A DNA stretch of 58,929 nucleotides, taken from contig JAZOPN010000056.1 of assembly GCA_045655565.1 (NCBI GenBank), positions 1 through 58,929 on the forward strand, given 5' to 3'. Within the stretch, counting starts at the first letter, position 1. Each line of letters opens with the position of its first letter. This DNA comes from Eubacteriales bacterium (lineage in GTDB: Bacteria > Bacillota > Clostridia > Oscillospirales > CAG-272). The notes below the pieces were generated by a model. It did not search any database, was not told the DNA's origin, and was given only the letters and a program-made list of their open reading frames with translations. The translations under genes were made by a program, and so were the position numbers. This document shows positions 3,031 through 14,343 of this stretch, piece after piece.

Positions 3031-3816
3031 TTATTTGCCGAGCTTCTTGGTCTTTTCATACGCCGAAATAACAGCGTCGGCAACCACGCCGCGCATTCCG
3101 CCTGCCTCAAGCGCTAGCACGCCCTCTATCGTACTGCCGCCGGGAGAGCATACAGCATCCTTAAGCTCGCCCGGATGTCTGCCACTCTCTAGCACCGTCA
3201 CCGCAGCACCGAGCACTGTGCTTGCCGCATATTCCATAGCCTTGTCGCGAGGCAGACCTGCCGCTACGCCACCATCGGCCAGAGCCTCGATGAACATATA
3301 GACGAATGCTGGGCCACAGCCCGAAACAGCCGAGCCGGCATCTATAATTTTTTCGGGTATTCTATCGAGTCTGCCCGAGAACTTCATAAGGTCAAGGAAC
3401 TTCTCGACCTCTACCTCCTCGACCATATCCGAGGTGGTGTAGAGTATCATACCCTTGCCGTATGCCACAGGCGTGTTGGGCATAATTCTAATAACCTTAC
3501 AGGGGCGTCCTAGTGCCGCCTCAATCTTCTCCAGCGAAACACCTGCCGCCATCGAGATTAACACGGTGTTCTTACCAATCATCGGGGATATCTCGCCGAG
3601 CACACCTGCGATGATATTAGGCTTTACACCGAGGAAGACACAGTCGCACTTACAGACATCGGCAAGAGTTACCGCCACACCGTCTATTTCCTCACCGAGA
3701 GCCTTTGCGCGCTCTGTGTCCATATCATATAGACACACCTTAGCATAAGAAACCCTCGCTACGGCACGCGCCAGCGCACCGCCCATATTTCCACACCCGA
3801 TAAATCCGATTTTCAT
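3031..3816 (-). CDS. proC: Pyrroline-5-carboxylate reductase
   Basis: GFIGCGNMG, RIMPNTP, SGCGPAF, VCSPGGSTI. Confidence 0.96.
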   Translation of the reverse strand: MKIGFIGCGNMGGALARAVARVSYAKVCLYDMDTERAKALGEEIDGVAVTLADVCKCDCVFLGVKPNIIAGVLGEISPMIGKNTVLISMAAGVSLEKIEAALGRPCKVIRIMPNTPVAYGKGMILYTTSDMVEEVEVEKFLDLMKFSGRLDRIPEKIIDAGSAVSGCGPAFVYMFIEALADGGVAAGLPRDKAMEYAASTVLGAAVTVLESGRHPGELKDAVCSPGGSTIEGVLALEAGGMRGVVADAVISAYEKTKKLGK

Positions 3817-3826
3817 ATCCTGCTCC

Positions 3827-5086
3827 TTATCTTGTCTGACCTGTACCCTCTATAACATACTTATAGGTGGTAAGCTCACGAATTCCCATAGGCCCTCTTG
3901 CGTGCATCTTCTGGGTAGAAATACCCATCTCGCATCCAAGTCCGAACTCACCTCCGTCGGTAAATCTCGTTGACGCATTCACATACACTGCCGCCGAGTC
4001 CACCGAGTTAACGAAGGCTGTCGCTGCCTCATCACACCTGGTTATAATGCAATCGCTATGGTGCGTAGAATGCTCACCAATATGCGTAATAGCCTCATCT
4101 ACCGAGTCAACGATGCCTACCGCCAGCTTGTAGTCGAGGAACTCTGTGTCGAAGTCCTCGTCTGTCATAGCCACGCCATCAATTATTCTTAAAGCGCGCT
4201 CATCCAGCCTTAATTCGACAGGCACCTGAGCGGCCTTTTGTCTTGCGACAACTAGCCTCTCGTATAGCATCGGTAGAAAAATATCTGCAATAGCACTGTT
4301 TACTAGGCACACCTCTGCCGCGTTACATACCGAGGGGCGCTGTGTCTTTGCGTTTTCAATGATGTCGAGTGCCATATCAATATCAGCACTTTCATCTACA
4401 TATATGTGGCATATACCCGTGCCGGTTTCGATTACAGGCACGATAGCATTCTCAACACAGGCAGAAATCAAGCCCTTGCCGCCTCGTGGTATCAAGAGGT
4501 CGACATAGCCCCTCGCGCGCATAAGTTCGGTAGCACTCGCGCGTGTTGTATCGTCAACCAGCTGCACAGCACATTCGGGTAGCCCTGCACGCTTGGTTCC
4601 GCGCACCAGCGCATCCACGATGGCACGCGCAGAACGATACGCTTCCTTGCCTCCGCGCAGTATGCATACATTTCCACTCTTAAGAGCAAGTGCTGCCGCG
4701 TCGGATGTAACATTCGGTCTGCTCTCATATATGATTGCTACGACACCCATAGGCACAACCGTCTTCTTAATTACAAGACCATTAGGCCGTACCACCGTGT
4801 CTATCACATCACCAAGAGGCGAGGGAAGTGCCATAGCATCGGTAATACCGCGCGCCATCCCAAGAATTCTATCCTCACTTAGGCGTAGACGGTCTATCAT
4901 AACATCGCTGATTTTACCGCGTGCCGCCTCGCAGTCGAGCGCATTTGCCTCTAGTATCTCTGCGCTTGCCGAAACCAGCTCCTCTGCCATATAGGCGAGG
5001 GCTGTGTTTATTTCTTCCTTTGTTACTCCGTTCATCTTAGCCTTAGCGGCTCTTGCATCGCGGAGTATATCCCTAGTTAATTTCAT
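3827..5086 (-). CDS. proA: Gamma-glutamyl phosphate reductase
   Basis: IYESRPNVT, catalytic SVCNA, NASTRFTDGGEFGLG, HARGPMG; start moved to ATG 5086 (MKLTRD). Confidence 0.96.
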   Translation of the reverse strand: MKLTRDILRDARAAKAKMNGVTKEEINTALAYMAEELVSASAEILEANALDCEAARGKISDVMIDRLRLSEDRILGMARGITDAMALPSPLGDVIDTVVRPNGLVIKKTVVPMGVVAIIYESRPNVTSDAAALALKSGNVCILRGGKEAYRSARAIVDALVRGTKRAGLPECAVQLVDDTTRASATELMRARGYVDLLIPRGGKGLISACVENAIVPVIETGTGICHIYVDESADIDMALDIIENAKTQRPSVCNAAEVCLVNSAIADIFLPMLYERLVVARQKAAQVPVELRLDERALRIIDGVAMTDEDFDTEFLDYKLAVGIVDSVDEAITHIGEHSTHHSDCIITRCDEAATAFVNSVDSAAVYVNASTRFTDGGEFGLGCEMGISTQKMHARGPMGIRELTTYKYVIEGTGQTR

Positions 5087-5108
5087 TTTTATCCCCCGTG
5101 GGTTATGA

Positions 5109-5873
5109 CTATTTCGAGTAGAACCTTGTTCCAACCGCCTCACCATCAAGTATCTGATAAAGTCTGTCGGGGTATGCACCGTTTGTAATAATCATATCAC
5201 AACCGCCCTCGTTTGCAATTTTGGCGGCGCGTAGCTTCGTCTGCATACCGCCTGTGCCGAGCATAGAACCTGCCCCCTCACCGAGCGTCATTATCTCGTC
5301 GGTAATCTCTCTTACCTCGGGGATAAGCACAGCATTTGGATTTTTCCTCGGGTCGGCGGTGTATAGCCCCTCGATGTCGGAGAGGAGTACCAACAGGTCT
5401 GCTCCGATACTAGCCGCAATACGCGCGGAGAGCGTGTCGTTGTCACCAAACTCAATCTCCTCGGTTGCCACGGTGTCATTCTCGTTGATAATCGGAATTA
5501 CAGAGAGCTCGAGTAGTTTTTCTATTGTCGCATTGAACTTCGCGTGCCTATCCTCGCATTCAAGGTCAGGTGCTGTCAGGAGTATCTGCGCCACCGTGTG
5601 GTTATGTAGCGCGAATTCCTTGTCATAGATATACATCAGCTCGCACTGACCTACGGCTGCCGCTGCCTGCTTCGCCGCTATCTCGGTGGGCTTCTTCGCC
5701 ATATGCAGCTTTCCGACACCCATACCCACAGCACCTGAGGATACTATAACCACCTCGTTGCCTGCATTCTTCATATCGCTAAGCGCGCGACAGAGCATCT
5801 CAATTCTACGGATGTTTACCGCGCCGTTAGCATATGTAAGAGTAGATGTGCCTATCTTGACAACTATTCTCAT
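5109..5873 (-). CDS. proB: Glutamate 5-kinase (no PUA domain)
   Basis: VVKIGTS, SSGAV, INENDTV, FGDNDTLSA, GTGGMQTK. Confidence 0.96.
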   Translation of the reverse strand: MRIVVKIGTSTLTYANGAVNIRRIEMLCRALSDMKNAGNEVVIVSSGAVGMGVGKLHMAKKPTEIAAKQAAAAVGQCELMYIYDKEFALHNHTVAQILLTAPDLECEDRHAKFNATIEKLLELSVIPIINENDTVATEEIEFGDNDTLSARIAASIGADLLVLLSDIEGLYTADPRKNPNAVLIPEVREITDEIMTLGEGAGSMLGTGGMQTKLRAAKIANEGGCDMIITNGAYPDRLYQILDGEAVGTRFYSK

Positions 5874-6078
5874 AATTAACTCCATTCCGCCGCACAGCGA
5901 CTATCTTAATTTCGTCAGCACTAAAGACGCCTGACGAAAAAACTTTCCACTATAAACCATATTTTAGCATATCAAAAGGCATAATGCAAGAAAAAATATA
6001 TAAAATAATACCTAAAAAAAGATATTTTATGAGAAAAAAGTGAGGAAGCAGAAAAACTTCCCCACAAAATGATACGCA

Positions 6079-7152
6079 TTAAAAAACTTCACCGGCAATA
6101 TTGGTGGTTGCAAACCTTGTGAGTGCAACGCCTGAAAGTCCGAGCGACACACCAACCATAAGCTTGGCATACGCCATCTCGACATTCATATTCAGATATG
6201 TCGGCTTCGCGTGACTATGCAGATCATACATAGTTGAATACTGGTCTTGGTCTAGCCTCGTTGGTGCGACAAACAGCGGAATATCGCATTTCAGACACTT
6301 GTCGGCAAGATAAAGAATTGATAGGGTGGAGTAGTCCTCGTCATCCTCACACCTCTCGGTACATACCGTCCCCGAGTGATAGGTTGTGTGCAGTACCGCC
6401 TTTACACCATCGAGGGATATTCTCGAGTAATCAAGCCCTGTGTACGGATGTATCAGAAGAACATCCGATGACAACCCGGAAATCTTTTCTATATCCACCC
6501 CCGTGTCGAGTTTTCTCTGCTTGCTAGCCTCGCGTGCCCAAGCTTTTGCATCACTATTATCGCCATCGAATGTGACAATAGGCGCACGCTCCGTCACTGC
6601 GCTATGGAAGTCCTCGGAAAATACAGGACACTGCATAATAGACGAGCCGAGGTGCAGATAAATATTGCCATCGCTATTCCTATATGGCACATATACCGCC
6701 GGGCTTATGCCGTCGAGTATAAGCTCTATTGCCATACGGAAGTTGTCGTGAGCATTCGTTAGTGGGTCGCTTGGTGGGCGATTGCCCGATACCAGCATTA
6801 TCGGCACACCCGTGTTATGAAATACGACTGAAAATATCGCCGCAGAAAAGGCGAGCGTGTCGGTGCCGTGCATTACCACAACACCGAGATAGTCCTCTAG
6901 CCTATATGACCTTATATGCTCGATAATTCTCCACAGCTTTTTTGGTGTCATACTCTCGCTTAGCGTTTGATATTCCGGGGGAAATGTCGATATCTCGAGC
7001 ACTTCGTCCGCAAGCGGTGCATAGCACGACGCCCCACCCCTGAAGTTCTCGGCTAAGGAAGAGCGCGAGGCAGCAGAGTTAAGTTCTCTCTTTCCGCCCT
7101 CAGCGCTAGTGCCTATTGTGCCACCGGTATATACCGTTAGAATTTTTTTCAT
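6079..7152 (-). CDS. Asparaginase/glutaminase (AnsA/GatD-like) family protein
   Basis: TGGTIG and HGTDT catalytic-Thr motifs, LSESMTP; lies 18 bp downstream of gatB on the same strand. Confidence 0.85.
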   Translation of the reverse strand: MKKILTVYTGGTIGTSAEGGKRELNSAASRSSLAENFRGGASCYAPLADEVLEISTFPPEYQTLSESMTPKKLWRIIEHIRSYRLEDYLGVVVMHGTDTLAFSAAIFSVVFHNTGVPIMLVSGNRPPSDPLTNAHDNFRMAIELILDGISPAVYVPYRNSDGNIYLHLGSSIMQCPVFSEDFHSAVTERAPIVTFDGDNSDAKAWAREASKQRKLDTGVDIEKISGLSSDVLLIHPYTGLDYSRISLDGVKAVLHTTYHSGTVCTERCEDDEDYSTLSILYLADKCLKCDIPLFVAPTRLDQDQYSTMYDLHSHAKPTYLNMNVEMAYAKLMVGVSLGLSGVALTRFATTNIAGEVF

Positions 7153-7170
7153 AATGACTTGATGACCGGA

Positions 7171-8610
7171 TTATGCTTTGTTGACTTCCTCGATGAGGAT
7201 AGCCCTAAGCGTCTGTGGGTCGCAGTTGCCACGCAGTTCCTTCATACATCTGCCGAAGAGCGACATCAGTGCCTTTTCCTTACCGCCCTTGTAGTCACTG
7301 ACAGCCTTAGGGTCGGAAGCAACAACGGTCTTAACAACCTGCTCTATAAGACCTGTGTCGTTAGATACAACAAATCCGTTTGCCTCGGCATATGCCTTCG
7401 GGTCGATTGTCTTATCGTCAAACATAGCAGAGAGTATCTTCTTGCCGTTAGCACGACCGACAGTACCCTCCAGCACAAGGTTAATAAGCGTACCAAGTGC
7501 CGTACCGTCTATGTCGAGCATATCGGTAGTCATCTGCCTTGAATTCAGCTCCTTCATAACCTCGGAGAGCATCCAGTTAGCAGCATCCTTAGCCTTGCCA
7601 CATACCTTGTATGCATCCTCAAATGTGTCCGAGAGCGCACGGCTCTCGGTTATAAGACCTGCATCATACTCGCTAAGACCAAGCTCGTTGATATATCTTG
7701 CACGCTTAACCTCGGGGAACTCGGGTAAAGACTCGCGAATAGTACCATACCACTCGTCATCAATGACAATAGGCATAATGTTAGGGTCGGGGAAGTAACG
7801 GTAGTCACCGGCAGTTTCCTTGGTTCTCATAGAATAGCTCTTCCCGCGAATATCATCCCAGCGGCGTGTCTCCTGGACGAGCACCTCGCCACTACCCTCA
7901 AGCGCGTCTATATGCCTTGCGGTTTCGTATTCGATAGCGCGAGCAATAGCGGTGAGAGAGTTCATATTTTTCATCTCTGTACGCACACCAAGAGTTTTTG
8001 AGCCTTCGGGACGAACAGAAAGGTTTACATCACAGCGCATCGAGCCCTGCTCCCAACGGCAGTCCGAAACCTTTGCGAAGCGAAGAAGCGAGTGAAGTCT
8101 CTCAAGATATGCGATAACCTCCTCCGCGCTCGATAGGTCGGGCTGGCTAACAATCTCGATGAGGGGAACGCTCGTACGGTTGAAGTCTACGTGTGTTGTA
8201 TCGGGGAGAATATCGTGCACAAGCTTGCCCGCATCCTCCTCCATGTGTATCTGCTTAATTCTAATACTCTTCTTGCCGCTCGATGTCTCAATCTCCACAG
8301 TGCCATTCACCGCAATGGGCGCAAACCACTGTGTTGTCTGATACGCCGAGGGAAGATCGGGATAGTAGTAGCTCTTCTTGTCGAATGTGGTTGTGCGGTT
8401 GATGTGACAATTTAACATCATACCTGCGGTCATACCGAGGTCGACAACCCTCTTGTTGACAATTGGGAGCATACCCGGCATACCACAGCAGGCGGGGCAT
8501 ACGTGCTCGTTGGGGCCACCACCGAACTTAGCCGAGCAGGAGCAGAAAATCTTGGAGTTCGTAGCAAGCTCTACGTGTACCTCAAGACCAATGACGGTTT
8601 CGTATTTCAT
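7171..8610 (-). CDS. gatB: Asp-tRNA(Asn)/Glu-tRNA(Gln) amidotransferase subunit B
   Basis: IGLEVHVEL, KIFC, CPAC, HMEEDAGK, PLIEIVS, RCDVNLS, QETRRWD, DYRYFP. Confidence 0.97.
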   Translation of the reverse strand: MKYETVIGLEVHVELATNSKIFCSCSAKFGGGPNEHVCPACCGMPGMLPIVNKRVVDLGMTAGMMLNCHINRTTTFDKKSYYYPDLPSAYQTTQWFAPIAVNGTVEIETSSGKKSIRIKQIHMEEDAGKLVHDILPDTTHVDFNRTSVPLIEIVSQPDLSSAEEVIAYLERLHSLLRFAKVSDCRWEQGSMRCDVNLSVRPEGSKTLGVRTEMKNMNSLTAIARAIEYETARHIDALEGSGEVLVQETRRWDDIRGKSYSMRTKETAGDYRYFPDPNIMPIVIDDEWYGTIRESLPEFPEVKRARYINELGLSEYDAGLITESRALSDTFEDAYKVCGKAKDAANWMLSEVMKELNSRQMTTDMLDIDGTALGTLINLVLEGTVGRANGKKILSAMFDDKTIDPKAYAEANGFVVSNDTGLIEQVVKTVVASDPKAVSDYKGGKEKALMSLFGRCMKELRGNCDPQTLRAILIEEVNKA

Positions 8611-9803
8611 TATCTCTCTCCCTCCCCGATAATCTTAGCGCACTCAAGCAGTGCCGCATCCGAGAATAGAGGGCCAACCAGAGCAACACCGCCTGCTACC
8701 GCATAGGGCAGACCGCTTATCATCATAGGCGCGACAAACCTATTCTCCTTGTAGGAAATAGCCTCGTCAGCCTTTATGTCATCCTCAGTGTACAAGGTCT
8801 TAGAGCATACGGGAGTAAGAACTGCGTCAAACTCACCGAACACCCCGGCAAATGCCTCTGACACAACGCGCCTTACGCGAAGTGCCTTGTCATAAATAGC
8901 CATATAATTCTCGGTAGACAGCGTGTCAGAGCCGAAGAGAATAGCACACTTTAATAGCTTGCCAAACGCCTCTGTACGGCTACCGGTATATAGCTCGTCG
9001 ATATTGGTGAAGTTGTCGGTGCGATAACCGTACTTCACGCCATCATACTTAGATACATTGTTGCATAGCTCAGCACTCATAAGGATATTCCACGCGCCGT
9101 GCGCTGCCGCGAGTACATCGCAGTCTATCTCGGTGACCTCGACACCACTTGCTATAAGTGCCGCCTTTGCCGCCTCCAGCCTTGCCATAGTATCAGCATC
9201 TGCACCCTCGGTCATAGACTTAATTATAGCCACCTTGCCAACAGGCTTTCTTACCACAGTAGCCGACACACAGGTGTTCTCGTCGTGGCTAGTGCCATCC
9301 TTGCTGTCGTGATGCGCGAGAGTACCAAAGAGGTCAAGACAGGTCTTAGCATCCCTCGCCATAACACCAACGCACTCGCCGGAGCATACAACAGGAACAA
9401 TACCAAATCTCGATACCACGCCATAGGTAGGCTTAAGCGCTACGATACCGGCAAGAGCCGCCGAGCGTGCCATAGCACCGTTGACCTCAACAGCCACAGC
9501 GCCCATAGCCTCGCCACTCGCTACAATCTCTGCCGCAGAGCCTACGAGCACACCATCCTTAATTGCCACACCGTTATACGCGGTCTCACCGACAAGGTCG
9601 ATACCGAACTCGCCGACAGACGACTTGCCACAAATCTTGTAGCCGGCATCGCCAAGCCTTGTTACCACCTCGGCATCAAATAGGCTCATATAGCCATCGA
9701 GCATCCTAGAGCCTGCCGTGGTTGGCATATCCTTAGTAAGGATCATATCATCTAGGACGATGCCATCCTTGACACCGTCGCACTTTACATTATACAGTTT
9801 CAT
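8610..9803 (-). CDS. gatA: GatA homologue, shortened (397 aa) and apparently catalytically inactive
   Basis: Sits between gatC and gatB; keeps KPTYGVVSRFG, YDGVKYGYR, RTEAFG, KALRVRR; amidase triad motifs are degenerate. Confidence 0.85.
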   Translation of the reverse strand: MKLYNVKCDGVKDGIVLDDMILTKDMPTTAGSRMLDGYMSLFDAEVVTRLGDAGYKICGKSSVGEFGIDLVGETAYNGVAIKDGVLVGSAAEIVASGEAMGAVAVEVNGAMARSAALAGIVALKPTYGVVSRFGIVPVVCSGECVGVMARDAKTCLDLFGTLAHHDSKDGTSHDENTCVSATVVRKPVGKVAIIKSMTEGADADTMARLEAAKAALIASGVEVTEIDCDVLAAAHGAWNILMSAELCNNVSKYDGVKYGYRTDNFTNIDELYTGSRTEAFGKLLKCAILFGSDTLSTENYMAIYDKALRVRRVVSEAFAGVFGEFDAVLTPVCSKTLYTEDDIKADEAISYKENRFVAPMMISGLPYAVAGGVALVGPLFSDAALLECAKIIGEGER

Positions 9804-9814
9804 AATACCTCCCA

Positions 9815-10096
9815 TCACTCCACGACACGAGGAACACGCCAATAGCCCTCGTCAGCATCGGGAGCGCCCTTTTGGAGCTCTTCCCTGGTATAGGGCTGTG
9901 ACGCTACATCCTCACGCACGACCGTGAGTATCGGCATAACGTGTACCATCCTCTCTGTGGAGGTGGTGTCTATTTTCTCGAGCCTTGTAAACTCCTTCGC
10001 CCTCTCGCCGAAGAACGCGATAACATCATCCGCCTCGGCATCTGTGAGAGCGAGCTGGTTTAGCGACTCGAGTCTAGCTAAAGCTTCTCTTTCCAT
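9815..10096 (-). CDS. gatC: Amidotransferase subunit C
   Basis: 93 aa, VVREDV and APDADEGYWRVPRVVE C-terminus; operon position. Confidence 0.92.
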   Translation of the reverse strand: MEREALARLESLNQLALTDAEADDVIAFFGERAKEFTRLEKIDTTSTERMVHVMPILTVVREDVASQPYTREELQKGAPDADEGYWRVPRVVE

Positions 10097-10110: not shown

Positions 10111-11886
10111 TTAATCTCTAACCTTTATGTGAACCTCACGAAGCTGCTGCTCGGTAACCTCGCCGGGCGCACCCATCATAAGGTCCTGCGCATTTCCGTT
10201 AAGCGGGAATGCGATAACATCGCGGATGGTCTCCTCCTCTGCGATGAGCATGATCATTCTGTCAACGCCGGGAGCCATACCTGCGTGGGGAGGCGCACCA
10301 TAGGAGAACGCGGTGTAGAGCGCACCGAACTTCGCCTTAACATCCTCCTCGCCATATCCCGCGATCTCGAATGCCTTCTTCATGATCTCGGGGTTGTGGT
10401 TACGAACAGCACCGGAGGAAAGCTCAACACCATTACATACGATGTCATACTGATATGCGAAAATCTCAAGAGGATCCTTGTTAAGAAGCGCATCGAGACC
10501 ACCCTGGGGCATGGAGAATGGATTGTGTGTGAAGTCAATCTTGTTTGTATCGGGGTTAAGCTCATACATCGGGAAGTCGACGATGAAGCAGAACTCGAAG
10601 GAGTCGTTCTTGATGAGGTTAAGCTCATTGCCGAGCCAGGTTCTAATCTGACCTGCGAGCTGGTTTATAACCTTGGGAGTATCGCAGATAAAGAAGAGGG
10701 TTTCGCCATCCTTAATGCCGACAAGCTCGGTTAGCTCTGCCTGCTGCTCGGGGGTGAGGAACTTCGCAATCGGGCCCTTGTACTCGCCACCCTCAAGGGT
10801 GATGTAGCCGATACCGTACGCCATACCGATGCTTCTTGCATATACATCAATAGCCTTCTCGAATGCCTTCTTGCCGTCACCGTCACCATCTCTCTTAACA
10901 AGGTAGTTAGCAACAATACCGCGAACAAGCTTATTCTTGAAGGGGATAGTTCTGCCGTTTATGGTGAGGAAATCACCCTTAGCGAAGAAGTTTGTAAGAT
11001 CCTGGATAAGGAGTGGGTTTCTAAGGTCGGGCTTATCCGAGCCATACTTCAGCATAGCCTCAGCGAAGGAGATGCGTCGGAAAGGAGGCTTAGATACGGT
11101 CTTATTTGAAAACTCGCTGAATGTGTTATAAACCACAGTTTCCGCGACCTCGAATACATCCTCCTGTGTTGCAAACGCCATCTCGAAGTCGAGCTGGTAG
11201 AACTCTCCGGGAGAGCGATCCTGACGCGCATCCTCGTCACGGAAGCAGGGTGCGATCTGGAAATAACGGTCAAAGCCCGAAGCCATCAGAAGCTGCTTAA
11301 ACTGCTGGGGAGCTTGGGGAAGTGCATAGAACTTGCCCTTGTGCTTACGGCTGGGTACAAGATAATCACGCGCACCCTCGGGTGAGGACGCGGTGAGTAT
11401 GGGTGTCTGTATTTCGAGGAAGCCTAGCTCCTCCATCTGACGGCGAAGATAACTGAGTATCTTAGAGCGAAGAACAATATTGTCGTGTATTTTGCGGTTT
11501 CTAAGATCGAGATAACGGTACTTAAGTCTTATCTCCTCGCGAGTGAGGGTAGAAGCATCAATCTCAAAAGGAAGACCGAGCTTACAGGGACCAAGCACCT
11601 CAATCTTATTTGCACGCACCTCGACAAGGCCTGTGTCAAGCTTGGGGTTTACGGTTTCCTCATCTCTCTTGGTTACGACACCCTCGACGAGAACTACGGT
11701 CTCCTTAGCAAGACCTCTTAGCATACTGTCATCCGAGAAAACTATCTGCGTTACGCCATAGTGGTCGCGCAGGTCAACGAAAAGCACGCCTCCGTGGTCG
11801 CGTACAGTCTCCATCCAACCTGTTAGCGTTACGGTCATACCGATATGCTCGAATCTGAGTTCATTACAGTTGTGTGTTCTTAGCAT
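10111..11886 (-). CDS. aspS: Aspartate-tRNA ligase, probably non-discriminating
   Basis: RTHNC, RDHGG, PEGARDY, ALPQAPQQFKQLLM, CFRDED, PPHAGMAPGVDR; linked to gatCAB and an Asn T-box. Confidence 0.95.
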   Translation of the reverse strand: MLRTHNCNELRFEHIGMTVTLTGWMETVRDHGGVLFVDLRDHYGVTQIVFSDDSMLRGLAKETVVLVEGVVTKRDEETVNPKLDTGLVEVRANKIEVLGPCKLGLPFEIDASTLTREEIRLKYRYLDLRNRKIHDNIVLRSKILSYLRRQMEELGFLEIQTPILTASSPEGARDYLVPSRKHKGKFYALPQAPQQFKQLLMASGFDRYFQIAPCFRDEDARQDRSPGEFYQLDFEMAFATQEDVFEVAETVVYNTFSEFSNKTVSKPPFRRISFAEAMLKYGSDKPDLRNPLLIQDLTNFFAKGDFLTINGRTIPFKNKLVRGIVANYLVKRDGDGDGKKAFEKAIDVYARSIGMAYGIGYITLEGGEYKGPIAKFLTPEQQAELTELVGIKDGETLFFICDTPKVINQLAGQIRTWLGNELNLIKNDSFEFCFIVDFPMYELNPDTNKIDFTHNPFSMPQGGLDALLNKDPLEIFAYQYDIVCNGVELSSGAVRNHNPEIMKKAFEIAGYGEEDVKAKFGALYTAFSYGAPPHAGMAPGVDRMIMLIAEEETIRDVIAFPLNGNAQDLMMGAPGEVTEQQLREVHIKVRD

Positions 11887-11989: not shown

Positions 11990-12240
11990 ATGAAAAAACA
12001 AAAAGCCCATCATCCCATATATTATGGGACGAAAGGCAAACTTCCGCGATACCACCCAAATTGACCATAAATGGTCCACCTCAATTATGCCGTTACGCGA
12101 CAAGCGTGCGGGTCTAATAACCAAATGGCTTTCTTCCGCAGACTCCGAAGTGTTTTTCTCCAAAGGTACGCTGCTGTCTTACACCAACCGACAGCTCTCT
12201 GCAAGCGGTTTTCCTCGGATACTCGCTTCATCAACGCCAA
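11990..12240 (-). promoter_or_regulatory. T-box riboswitch, Asn (AAC) specifier
   Basis: Minus strand: GAGTA S-turn, AGAGAG and GGTGTAA motifs, specifier AAC (12152-12154), T-box AATTTGGGTGGTATCGCGG (12044-12062), terminator hairpin plus U tract (11992-12037). Confidence 0.92.
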
Positions 12241-12462
12241 TTCACGCATTTATTTTATCACACATTGTAATGGTTGTCAAGATAATTTGAAAATATTTTA
12301 TACTGTATTACTTATATAGCCCGAAAATATTAGGTTATAAAAATAATCACCTTAGTGTATTGTCTAAACTTTGTGTTTTTCGGGTGTCTGCCCTAATTTT
12401 CTTTTTATTATCGTTGCTAATAGTTTTCCTCGCCAAATTCTGGAATTTCGGTGGGTTTATTA

Positions 12463-12614: not shown

Positions 12615-12657
12615 AACAAAAAGAGAACTTTTGGTAGACAAAAGTTCTCTTTTTGTT
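12615..12657 (-). terminator. Terminator of tRNA-Gln
   Basis: aacaaaaagagaacttttg/caaaagttctctttttgtt perfect inverted repeat abutting the tRNA CCA end. Confidence 0.75.
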
Positions 12658-12731
12658 GGCAGGGGTAGCTGGATTTGAACCAGCGGATAGAGGAGTCAAA
12701 GTCCTGTGCCTTACCGCTTGGCGATACCCCT
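12657..12731 (-). tRNA. tRNA-Gln(UUG)
   Basis: AGGGGTA..TACCCCT-G-CCA acceptor stem, anticodon loop CTTTGAC, T arm GCTGG-TTCAAAT-CCAGC. Confidence 0.95.
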
Positions 12732-14176: not shown

Positions 14177-14261
14177 TGGTGGGGGAAGCTGGATTCGGAC
14201 CAGCGAAGTCGATGACAACAGATTTACAGTCTGCCCCCTTTGGCCGCTCGGGAATTCCCCC
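14177..14261 (-). tRNA. tRNA-Tyr(GUA)
   Basis: GGGGGAA..TTCCCCC-A-CCA, anticodon loop CTGTAAA, long variable arm. Confidence 0.95.
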
Positions 14262-14268
14262 ATATTAC

Positions 14269-14343
14269 TGGAGCTGGTGAACGGAGTCGAACCATCAACC
14301 TGCTGATTACAAATCAGCTGCTCTGCCATTGAGCCACACCAGC
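14269..14343 (-). tRNA. tRNA-Thr(UGU)
   Basis: GCTGGTG..CACCAGC-T-CCA, anticodon loop TTTGTAA, GGTTCGACTCC. Confidence 0.95.

Follow-up and report, generated by a model that had tools for sequence, protein, structure and literature searches.

Positions 1 to 58,929 of contig JAZOPN010000056.1, from a Eubacteriales bacterium (assembly GCA_045655565.1; Oscillospirales, CAG-272), are referred to here as the window. On its minus strand the window carries the genes of a GatCAB-type amidotransferase in which the A subunit, here called GatA', is an N-terminally shortened GatA paralogue without the catalytic triad. The unit has the order T-box(Asn)-aspS-gatC-gatA'-gatB-ansL and forms one compact set between 12280 and 6040. 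AnsL is a name coined here for the divergent asparaginase-family protein encoded by the last gene. The features of the unit are as follows.

12252..12280, minus strand: promoter-like site, TTGACA, a 17-nt spacer and TAAAAT, with TG ahead of the second hexamer
12022..12243, minus strand: T-box leader with AAC (Asn) as the presumed specifier; RF00230, 124.6 bits against a gathering score of 93
12010-12032, minus strand: T-box terminator stem, a terminator-like site
10111..11886, minus strand: aspS, bacterial-type aspartyl-tRNA synthetase (AspRS), 591 aa; NF001750, 758 bits against a cut-off of 443
9815..10096, minus strand: gatC, 93 aa; TIGR00135, 61.1 bits against a cut-off of 47.1, and a PF02686 match
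8610..9803, minus strand: gatA', 397 aa, N-terminally shortened GatA paralogue without the triad
7171..8610, minus strand: gatB, 479 aa, full length with YqeY tail; TIGR00133, 518.6 bits against 314.8
6079..7152, minus strand: ansL, 357 aa, divergent asparaginase-family protein
6040..6065, minus strand: terminator-like hairpin with a 10-bp stem, then the T-run TTTTTTCTCA; end of the unit

The promoter-like site has 11 of 12 consensus matches and was the top of 19 sites in the region, a ranking by consensus match only. The T-box leader matched all 219 positions of the RF00230 model. The eight unpaired bases of its specifier loop read GAA-A-AAC-A in the window and GAA-N-AAC-A across leaders, with AAC unchanged in 7/7 aligned T-box leaders and the preceding base variable. 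We take AAC to be the specifier codon, its position having been placed from the Rfam consensus structure and the usual T-box architecture. The product of aspS matched the Pfam families tRNA-synt_2, OB fold and GAD, and GatB was additionally matched by NF004012 (588 bits against 338), PF02934 and PF02637. An earlier reading of this stretch by a model, made from the letters alone and referred to here as the original prediction, had ascribed to gatA' a good ribosome-binding site, TAATG coupling to gatB and no stops, and all of this was confirmed. The ATG of gatA' lies 12 nt past the gatC stop with GGGAGG 5-6 nt upstream of it, the gatA' stop and gatB start overlap as TAATG, and the open reading frame (ORF) has zero internal stops over 397 aa. 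The start of ansL is 18 nt downstream of gatB and the gene ends ahead of the terminator, which makes it part of the T-box(Asn) unit.

GatA' has the fold of GatA and lacks its glutaminase residues

According to the original prediction, the triad and glutamine-binding residues of this GatA are replaced while the ORF is kept. We aligned GatA' by HMMER to the solved chains 4wj3_A, 3al0_A and 2gi3_A and by MAFFT with six canonical GatA from related genomes, and both sets of alignments bore this out. The motif aIKDN, with the catalytic Lys, is vLDDM in GatA'; GGSSGGSAA is DGVLVGSAA, so that the GGSSGG loop is gone; GSDTGGSIRQPA is AVEVNGAMARSA, with Ala for the nucleophile Ser; and EVKRRI and MYxxD, with the Gln-binding Arg and Asp, are LLKCAI and SYKEN. 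KPTYGVVSRFG and YDGVKYGYR are retained, also as predicted. Staphylococcus aureus numbering of K79, S154, S178, Y309, R358 and D425 was confirmed by offset in five canonical sequences, and in the window GatA' these positions read Asp, Leu, Ala, Trp, Ala and Asn, respectively. The residue roles follow PMC2330236 and 10.1101/733030, the accessible part of the latter assigning glutamine binding in S. aureus GatA to Y309, R358 and D425. The TIGR00132 match spans model positions 63-425 of 466, and therefore about 60 N-terminal residues are absent, in line with the original estimate. Its score of 229.4 bits is below the curated cut-off of 481.1, and other members of the GatA' family score 223-279 bits. 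In contrast, the amidase signature family PF01425 was matched at 166.9 against a gathering score of 27, with the GGSSGG signature absent. The AlphaFold2 model of GatA' had a mean predicted local distance difference test score (pLDDT) of 92.6, and its top solved match was S. aureus GatA (2df4_A; TM-score TMq 0.91, root-mean-square deviation 2.3 Å). Since the triad and the Gln-binding residues are gone, GatA' cannot be the glutaminase of GatCAB as that enzyme is described in the accessible part of PMC2330236.

GatA' belongs to a conserved family under selection

The family alignment comprised 65 members, 8 from GTDB relatives and 57 from loci of species-representative genomes, and its columns were compared with those of 26 full-length GatA proteins; the thresholds between family and non-family rest on score gaps picked from match listings. 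In a tree with the 26 full-length proteins, all 65 GatA' sequences fell under one node with a support of 0.96 and a stem of 0.41 substitutions per site. The K79 column holds Asp in 63/65 members. Ser is found in 0/65 at S154, where 55 have Leu, and neither Arg at R358 nor Asp at D425 occurs in any of the 65. The nucleophile column (S178) is mixed, with Ala in 34, Ser in 15, Thr in 14 and Tyr in 2. Pocket positions that are invariant in canonical GatA have become fixed again for other residues, namely K79 to D (97%), G176 to N and Q181 to R (65/65 each) and S319 to N (100%). Trp occupies the Y309 column in 97% of the family, and a Cys at position 318 and a Glu at position 424 are family-invariant. 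Overall, 47 positions are invariant in both the GatA' family and canonical GatA, and 57 canonical-invariant positions have an altered consensus.

The ratio of nonsynonymous to synonymous substitution rates (dN/dS; Nei-Gojobori, ten closest pairs) was 0.06-0.13 for gatA' in 10/10 pairs, 0.02-0.10 for gatB and 0.02-0.06 for aspS. These values come from pairs outside the window's own branch, for which the nearest metagenome DNA has 61% identity (7 loci) and the relatives at 70-81% identity are proteins. The four nearest relatives of the window GatA' (70-81% identity) are intact and have the same variant of the nucleophile-region segment, including the extra changes D106 to E and R112 to A of this sublineage. 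A protein-cluster search returned at least 120 clusters of 378-406 aa with 56-100% identity to the window GatA'. Together, the single family, the low dN/dS, the intact relatives and the T-box(Asn) operon agree with the original prediction that GatA' is not decaying and has been kept by selection for a role other than catalysis. Its further suggestion of a purely structural role may be too narrow, as several old active-site positions are re-fixed to new residues.

Just outside the family, its closest neighbours in the tree are full-length GatA copies already without Lys79 (node supports 0.988 and 1.0). A copy from a termite-gut metagenome-assembled genome (MAG; L102:6776-8194) is fully degenerate. 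In Caldicoprobacter oshimai DSM 21659, a cultured strain (L108:6767-8236), and in UBA3930 (L114:6743-8236), Lys79 is Glu and Gln181 is Arg, and Ser178, Arg358 and Asp425 are kept. A second, fully canonical gatA is present in C. oshimai. In UBA3930 the Lys-to-Glu copy is the sole gatA, and AsnRS, the asparaginyl-tRNA synthetase, was not found there. These three copies look like intermediate stages, which suggests a stepwise loss of activity in a duplicated, Asn-dedicated GatA copy.

Some MAGs of Eggerthellaceae (Actinomycetota), recovered from the gut of goat and deer, have gatA' operons as well (L061, L067, L109), which suggests transfer from Clostridia. Canonical gatA was present alongside gatA' in both Eggerthellaceae genomes checked (G336, G340). 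One further genome, G365, carries two gatA' copies (C135:15310-16482 and C93:100-1251).

Carriers of gatA' lack AsnRS

We sampled 300 genomes evenly across the order, each at least 85% complete. GatA' family members were found in 15 of them, belonging to 8 GTDB families of Clostridia from gut and rumen, with scores of 368-694 bits compared to at most 275 bits for canonical GatA. AsnRS was not found in any of the 15 carriers or in 38 of the 285 non-carriers, the AsnRS-less genomes having been picked by hand as those missing from the match listing. Within the genus of the source genome, AsnRS scored above cut-off in 20 of 24 other species. All four AsnRS-less species (G006, G011, G016 and G017) carry gatA'-gatB, and G018 has both. 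As AsnRS is missing in all 15 carriers, the GatC-GatA'-GatB complex would be their route to Asn-tRNAAsn, and in carriers without both AsnRS and canonical gatA the T-box(Asn) operon appears to be the sole route. Glutaminyl-tRNA synthetase (GlnRS) was present in 4/4 other carriers tested, and Gln-tRNAGln therefore needs no amidotransferase complex there. AsnA was found in 0/5 carriers and AsnB in 2/5. Judged by its genes alone, the unit encodes a GatCAB-type Asp-tRNAAsn amidotransferase, with GatB and GatC above their cut-offs, aspS in the operon and carriers that lack AsnRS.

ARAGORN, run on the whole source MAG (G000), found 26 tRNAs and no tRNAAsn. A 428-aa class II synthetase of this genome (G000:C42:6142-7428; L129:243-1529, minus strand) was considered as a hidden AsnRS and rejected, as it is an archaeal-type AspRS (NF003483, 425 bits against 353). 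It is the second AspRS of the source genome, and similar genes are present in nearly all species of the genus, whether or not they bear AsnRS.

The operon and its GatB across carriers

Across 58 family loci, gatB directly follows gatA' in every one. The aspS gene precedes gatA' in 53, and a contig end cuts three of the remaining five. A T-box was found in 6/9 other gatA' loci scanned. No separate gatC was seen in one large subgroup, which has an aspS ORF of about 700 aa just before gatA'. Fused-looking aspS-gatC genes occur in many Acutalibacteraceae-type loci (L062-L096 type), for example L068:4771-6987. This L068 ORF, the only such ORF tested, aligned over the full length of NF009460, a model of bifunctional AspRS/GatC, with 458 bits, below the cut-off of 1379.

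GatB of gatA' operons scores as canonical GatB (510-530 bits). Eight of its positions are family-specific, namely Met65, Thr75, Lys78, Tyr82, Thr93, Ser147, His233 and Asn277. They are at least 90% conserved in 14 GatB with a canonical partner and have been re-fixed to 94-100% in 53 GatB of gatA' operons, and several of them fall in the FDRKNYFYPDLPK motif. The re-fixed positions may reflect co-adaptation to a dead partner or a new path for ammonia.

An asparaginase-family gene is linked to gatA'

The original prediction overlooked the likely substitute for the lost glutaminase, the asparaginase-family gene at 6079-7152. AnsL matched PF00710 in its N-terminal domain only (82.1 bits against 22.5), and the C-terminal PF17763 was unmatched. 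TIGR00519 gave 79.8 bits, under the type I asparaginase cut-off of 260.5, and the GatD models TIGR02153 (cut-off 324) and NF003217 (cut-off 310) gave 71.3 and 72.8 bits, respectively. The AnsL model (pLDDT 92.9) has the type I asparaginase fold, with a TM-score of 0.70 to 5dnc, 4q0m and 2him. The best solved-chain sequence match was GatD 1zq1 (E = 7e-12). We nevertheless rejected AnsL as a GatD, since GatD ranked only 36th by fold, after ordinary type I asparaginases, the scores fall under the GatD cut-offs and the GatD N-terminal domain is absent. In 23/23 aligned members, G10-G11-T12, S65-E66, H95-G96-T97-D98 and Y258-H259 are invariant, so that AnsL retains the nucleophile Thr, T12 of GGT, and the Thr-Asp pair T97-D98 of HGTD. 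His167 and a YHSGT motif are family-specific features. An ESM Atlas search returned only Bacillota clusters labelled asparaginase N-terminal domain proteins.

Asparaginase was the commonest Pfam family flanking the operon, in 7/50 downstream and 5/46 upstream ORFs, compared to three or fewer for every other family. An ansL homologue lay within 7 kb in 15 of 58 gatA' loci and in 0/21 other gatA loci. Its placement varies, and it can be found after gatB, before aspS, convergent or divergent; it precedes aspS in L048, L050 and L053. Of these three loci, L050 was scanned for a T-box, and its ansL is upstream of that element. In the order sample, where the ansL family scored 193-451 bits and other asparaginases at most 122 bits, the family was present in 12/15 gatA' carriers, from 7 GTDB families, in 5/38 AsnRS-less genomes with canonical GatA and in 1/247 genomes bearing AsnRS (Fisher p 7e-6 and 9e-15 for the carriers against the second and third group, with related genomes not independent). 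Two of the three ansL-less carriers of this sample, G026 and G292, also have canonical gatA, and the third, G313, is 88% complete. Of 43 further carrier species whose locus has no ansL, 29 encode a copy at another genomic site. Six of the remaining 14 have canonical gatA and five have AsnRS, one of them both, so that 10/14 are backed up. In G334 and G339 an ordinary, Lys-bearing asparaginase lies divergently upstream of aspS.

A prediction of the complex between GatA' (64-row alignment) and AnsL (23-row alignment) gave run scores on both sides of the mark of 0.32 (0.00, 0.41 and 0.10), with no controls folded, and thus speaks neither for binding nor against it. Two longer proteins containing an AnsL-related domain were found, neither of them joined to GatA or GatB, which is weak evidence. 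Both are fusions of a PfkB-type carbohydrate kinase with an asparaginase (P0241, 707 aa, and P0242, 684 aa), with 35-36% identity to AnsL.

A proposed working amidotransferase with a dead A subunit

Our preferred reading, held with moderate confidence, is of an Asp-tRNAAsn amidotransferase that still works although its A subunit, GatA', is catalytically dead, and that takes its ammonia from AnsL, from the surroundings or from both. The operon would be switched on by uncharged tRNAAsn through the T-box, and AspRS would charge tRNAAsn with Asp. GatB would then activate the Asp with ATP and amidate it, while GatA', held to GatB by the GatC belt, would hydrolyse no glutamine and be kept as an assembly partner for GatB. 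AnsL would release ammonia from Asn or Gln in place of the glutaminase, and ambient ammonia could also be used. The residue losses, the purifying selection, the operon with its T-box, the complementarity with AsnRS and the co-occurrence and proximity of ansL are observations. We infer the scaffold role of GatA', the activity of AnsL and its part as an ammonia source. The comparative data indicate that AnsL is probably the replacement source, because ansL goes with gatA' most closely in genomes that have no other GatA and less closely in those with canonical GatA or AsnRS, and because one sublineage has an ordinary asparaginase in the same genomic place. Free Asn is useless to translation where AsnRS is absent, and splitting it yields Asp and NH3, the substrates of the indirect route.

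A more specific version of this reading is offered tentatively, as a possibility that we think falls short of probable. AnsL may dock on the remodelled old active-site face of GatA' and feed Asn-derived ammonia through a retained GatA-GatB tunnel, forming a four-part GatC-GatA'-GatB-AnsL complex that converges on archaeal GatDE. If so, the complex would be an ATP-driven stand-in for AsnRS, in which Asn is split and Asp and NH3 are rebuilt to Asn on tRNAAsn. The new entry and path of ammonia would then be formed by Asp18, Asn108, Arg113, Trp238, Cys247, Asn248 and Glu353 of GatA' and by Thr75, Lys78, Tyr82, Thr93 and others of GatB.

Several observations weigh against the reading of a dead subunit supplied by AnsL. 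In place of the triad Lys, which ordinary asparaginases from related genomes have, AnsL has Gln where it is linked to the operon and Gly where it is encoded elsewhere, and the activity of AnsL is therefore not assured. As ansL is also found in five genomes that have canonical GatA and no AsnRS, Asn salvage, not ammonia supply, may account for part of the link. AnsL is not universal either: G356 and G365, of unknown completeness, are without detected asparaginase, AsnRS or canonical gatA, and G313 and G018 (91% complete) are also without ansL. In G011, a genome without AsnRS, gatA' (L012:1450-2655) has an in-frame TAG at the codon of the invariant Lys257, a split shared by L088, and an Eggerthellaceae copy (L109:6809-8184) is frameshifted; either a sequencing error or real loss would account for these two cases. 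In the source genome, AsnRS, GlnRS and a second gatA were all not found, and since this genome is only 72.7% complete, their absence there is weak evidence.

Alternative explanations

The alternative we take most seriously, while thinking it unlikely, is that the complex uses only the free NH3/NH4+ of the ammonia-rich gut or rumen and that AnsL is a mere Asn-to-Asp salvage enzyme with no specific tie to GatA'. In the accessible part of PMC4027206, a trimeric amidotransferase runs on 20 mM NH4Cl instead of glutamine, and loosening the GatA site raised the activity with NH4Cl. The record titles of the carriers are of gut, rumen and faecal MAGs, a few carriers have no ansL, and the gene also occurs in AsnRS-less genomes with canonical GatA. 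Where ansL is upstream of aspS, as in L048, L050 and L053, it can be upstream of the T-box, as in L050, and so outside the regulated unit. Yet among genomes without AsnRS, ansL is much commoner in those with GatA' than in those with canonical GatA, most of the 14 ansL-less carriers have a canonical gatA or AsnRS to fall back on, and the window's ansL sits before the terminator of the T-box(Asn) unit. It is improbable, in our view, that GatA' is instead alive, with a new active site built from Asp18, Asn108, Arg113, Trp238, Cys247, Asn248 and Glu353 that releases ammonia from some amide. The near-complete re-fixation of several pocket positions and the invariant Cys 318 and Glu 424 would fit such a site, but the alignment shows no conserved Ser-Ser-Lys or Cys-His set, the nucleophile column is a mixture of Ala, Ser, Thr and Tyr, and the window sublineage and its 70-81% relatives are altered further. 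A living GatA' would also leave the tight link to an outside amidohydrolase gene unexplained.

The complex might also have left tRNA amidation, for example as a regulator, a binder of Asp-tRNAAsn or a competitor of canonical GatCAB, for which there is a model in Tse8, a GatA look-alike that, according to the accessible part of 10.1101/733030, can replace GatA and harm the transamidosome. Canonical gatA does accompany gatA' in G026, G292 and the six ansL-less carriers mentioned above. Most carriers, however, are without both AsnRS and canonical gatA, their GatB scores like canonical GatB, and the unit has an Asn-specific T-box and its own aspS, all of which make such a change of role very improbable. 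Neutral decay, in which gatA' would be a young pseudogene still open by chance, is scarcely credible, as it is already contradicted by the data on selection and distribution. Its supports are the sub-threshold TIGR00132 score, the loss of gatA and gatB from most species of the genus and the two relatives with a stop or frameshift. Against these stand the low dN/dS, the 47 positions invariant in the family and in canonical GatA, clusters of uniform length and a monophyletic family spread over 8 GTDB families of the order.

Features neighbouring the operon

Directly past the terminator of the unit, at window positions 3031-5885 on the minus strand, lies a proline-synthesis set that encodes an amino-acid kinase, an aldehyde dehydrogenase-family protein and pyrroline-5-carboxylate reductase. 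A Gut-1 RNA (RF01706) match was found at 174-251 on the minus strand (52 bits against a gathering score of 50). Upstream of the T-box, also on the minus strand, are tRNA-Gln(UUG) at 12657-12731, tRNA-Tyr at 14177-14261 and tRNA-Thr at 14269-14343.

Significance

Two tRNA-dependent amidotransferases are known from textbooks, namely GatCAB, with an amidase-type glutaminase, and the archaeal GatDE, with an asparaginase-type one. The reading favoured here, if true, would add a third arrangement, in which GatB has a dead GatA partner and ammonia comes from elsewhere, most likely from an asparaginase-family protein. It would be a natural case of a pseudoenzyme retained for assembly and a way to probe how ammonia enters GatB. 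No description of a dead GatA or an asparaginase-linked GatB was found in literature titles and abstracts, mostly outside subscription papers and supplements. Where databases give names, GatA' is a 'hypothetical protein' and AnsL an 'asparaginase' or 'hypothetical protein', and owing to this annotation gap metabolic reconstructions may wrongly deny carriers the capacity to form Asn-tRNAAsn. With 15 carriers among the 300 sampled genomes of the order, a spread over 8 GTDB families and a presence in some Eggerthellaceae, the system is not rare.

Comparison with known systems

The unit resembles bacterial GatCAB (2df4, 3h0l, 4wj3, 3al0) in that its three gat genes have the identical order, GatC and GatB score over the NCBIfam cut-offs, GatA' has the GatA fold (TMq 0.88-0.91) and AspRS is a partner, as in the Asn transamidosome 4wj3. 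It differs in that GatA' has no Ser-cisSer-Lys triad, no Y309, R358 or D425 and not the first 60 or so residues, and in the eight family-specific re-fixed positions of its GatB. A closely similar clostridial operon, with aspS-gatCAB under the control of a T-box(Asn), a normal GatA and no asparaginase gene, was reportedly described in Clostridium acetobutylicum by Saad and colleagues in J Biol Chem in 2012. Both operons would have an Asn-specific T-box before an aspS-gatCAB set dedicated to Asn-tRNAAsn in a clostridial host.

AtzE is an active amidase of s-triazine breakdown and is not known to have a GatB partner. The AtzE-AtzG complex, called a 'vestigial protein complex' in the title of its PDB entry 6c62, resembles the pair studied here in that a GatA-like protein has been kept with a small partner akin to GatC in a setting other than the usual one, and 6c62_A was the rank-26 fold match of the GatA' model. 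As far as the accessible part of PMC4027206 goes, yeast mitochondrial GatFAB is alike in that the reaction of the B subunit proceeds on free ammonia with the glutaminase step bypassed. It differs in that its GatA is intact and the NH4Cl is supplied in the laboratory at 20 mM, whereas the loss in GatA' is natural and fixed. Tse8, a type VI toxin of Pseudomonas aeruginosa, is described in the accessible part of 10.1101/733030 as an amidase-signature protein with no glutaminase activity that is proposed to take the place of GatA with GatB and GatC. Unlike GatA', which is encoded in the operon as the cell's own subunit, Tse8 keeps the triad, is delivered as a toxin and lowers the supply of Asn-tRNAAsn.

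A further related system is archaeal GatDE, in which a GatB/GatE-type tRNA-dependent kinase and amidase works with an asparaginase-family ammonia source, as set out in the accessible part of PMC2330236. By its gene content, the window unit likewise pairs a GatB-type subunit with an asparaginase-family protein, and GatD 1zq1 is the solved chain that AnsL matches best in sequence. The N-terminal domain of GatD is missing from AnsL, in which the TGGT motif starts as early as residue 9 of the 357 aa. The triad Lys is missing as well, type I asparaginases rank first among the fold matches of AnsL, and its gene partners are gatB, gatC and gatA' rather than gatE.

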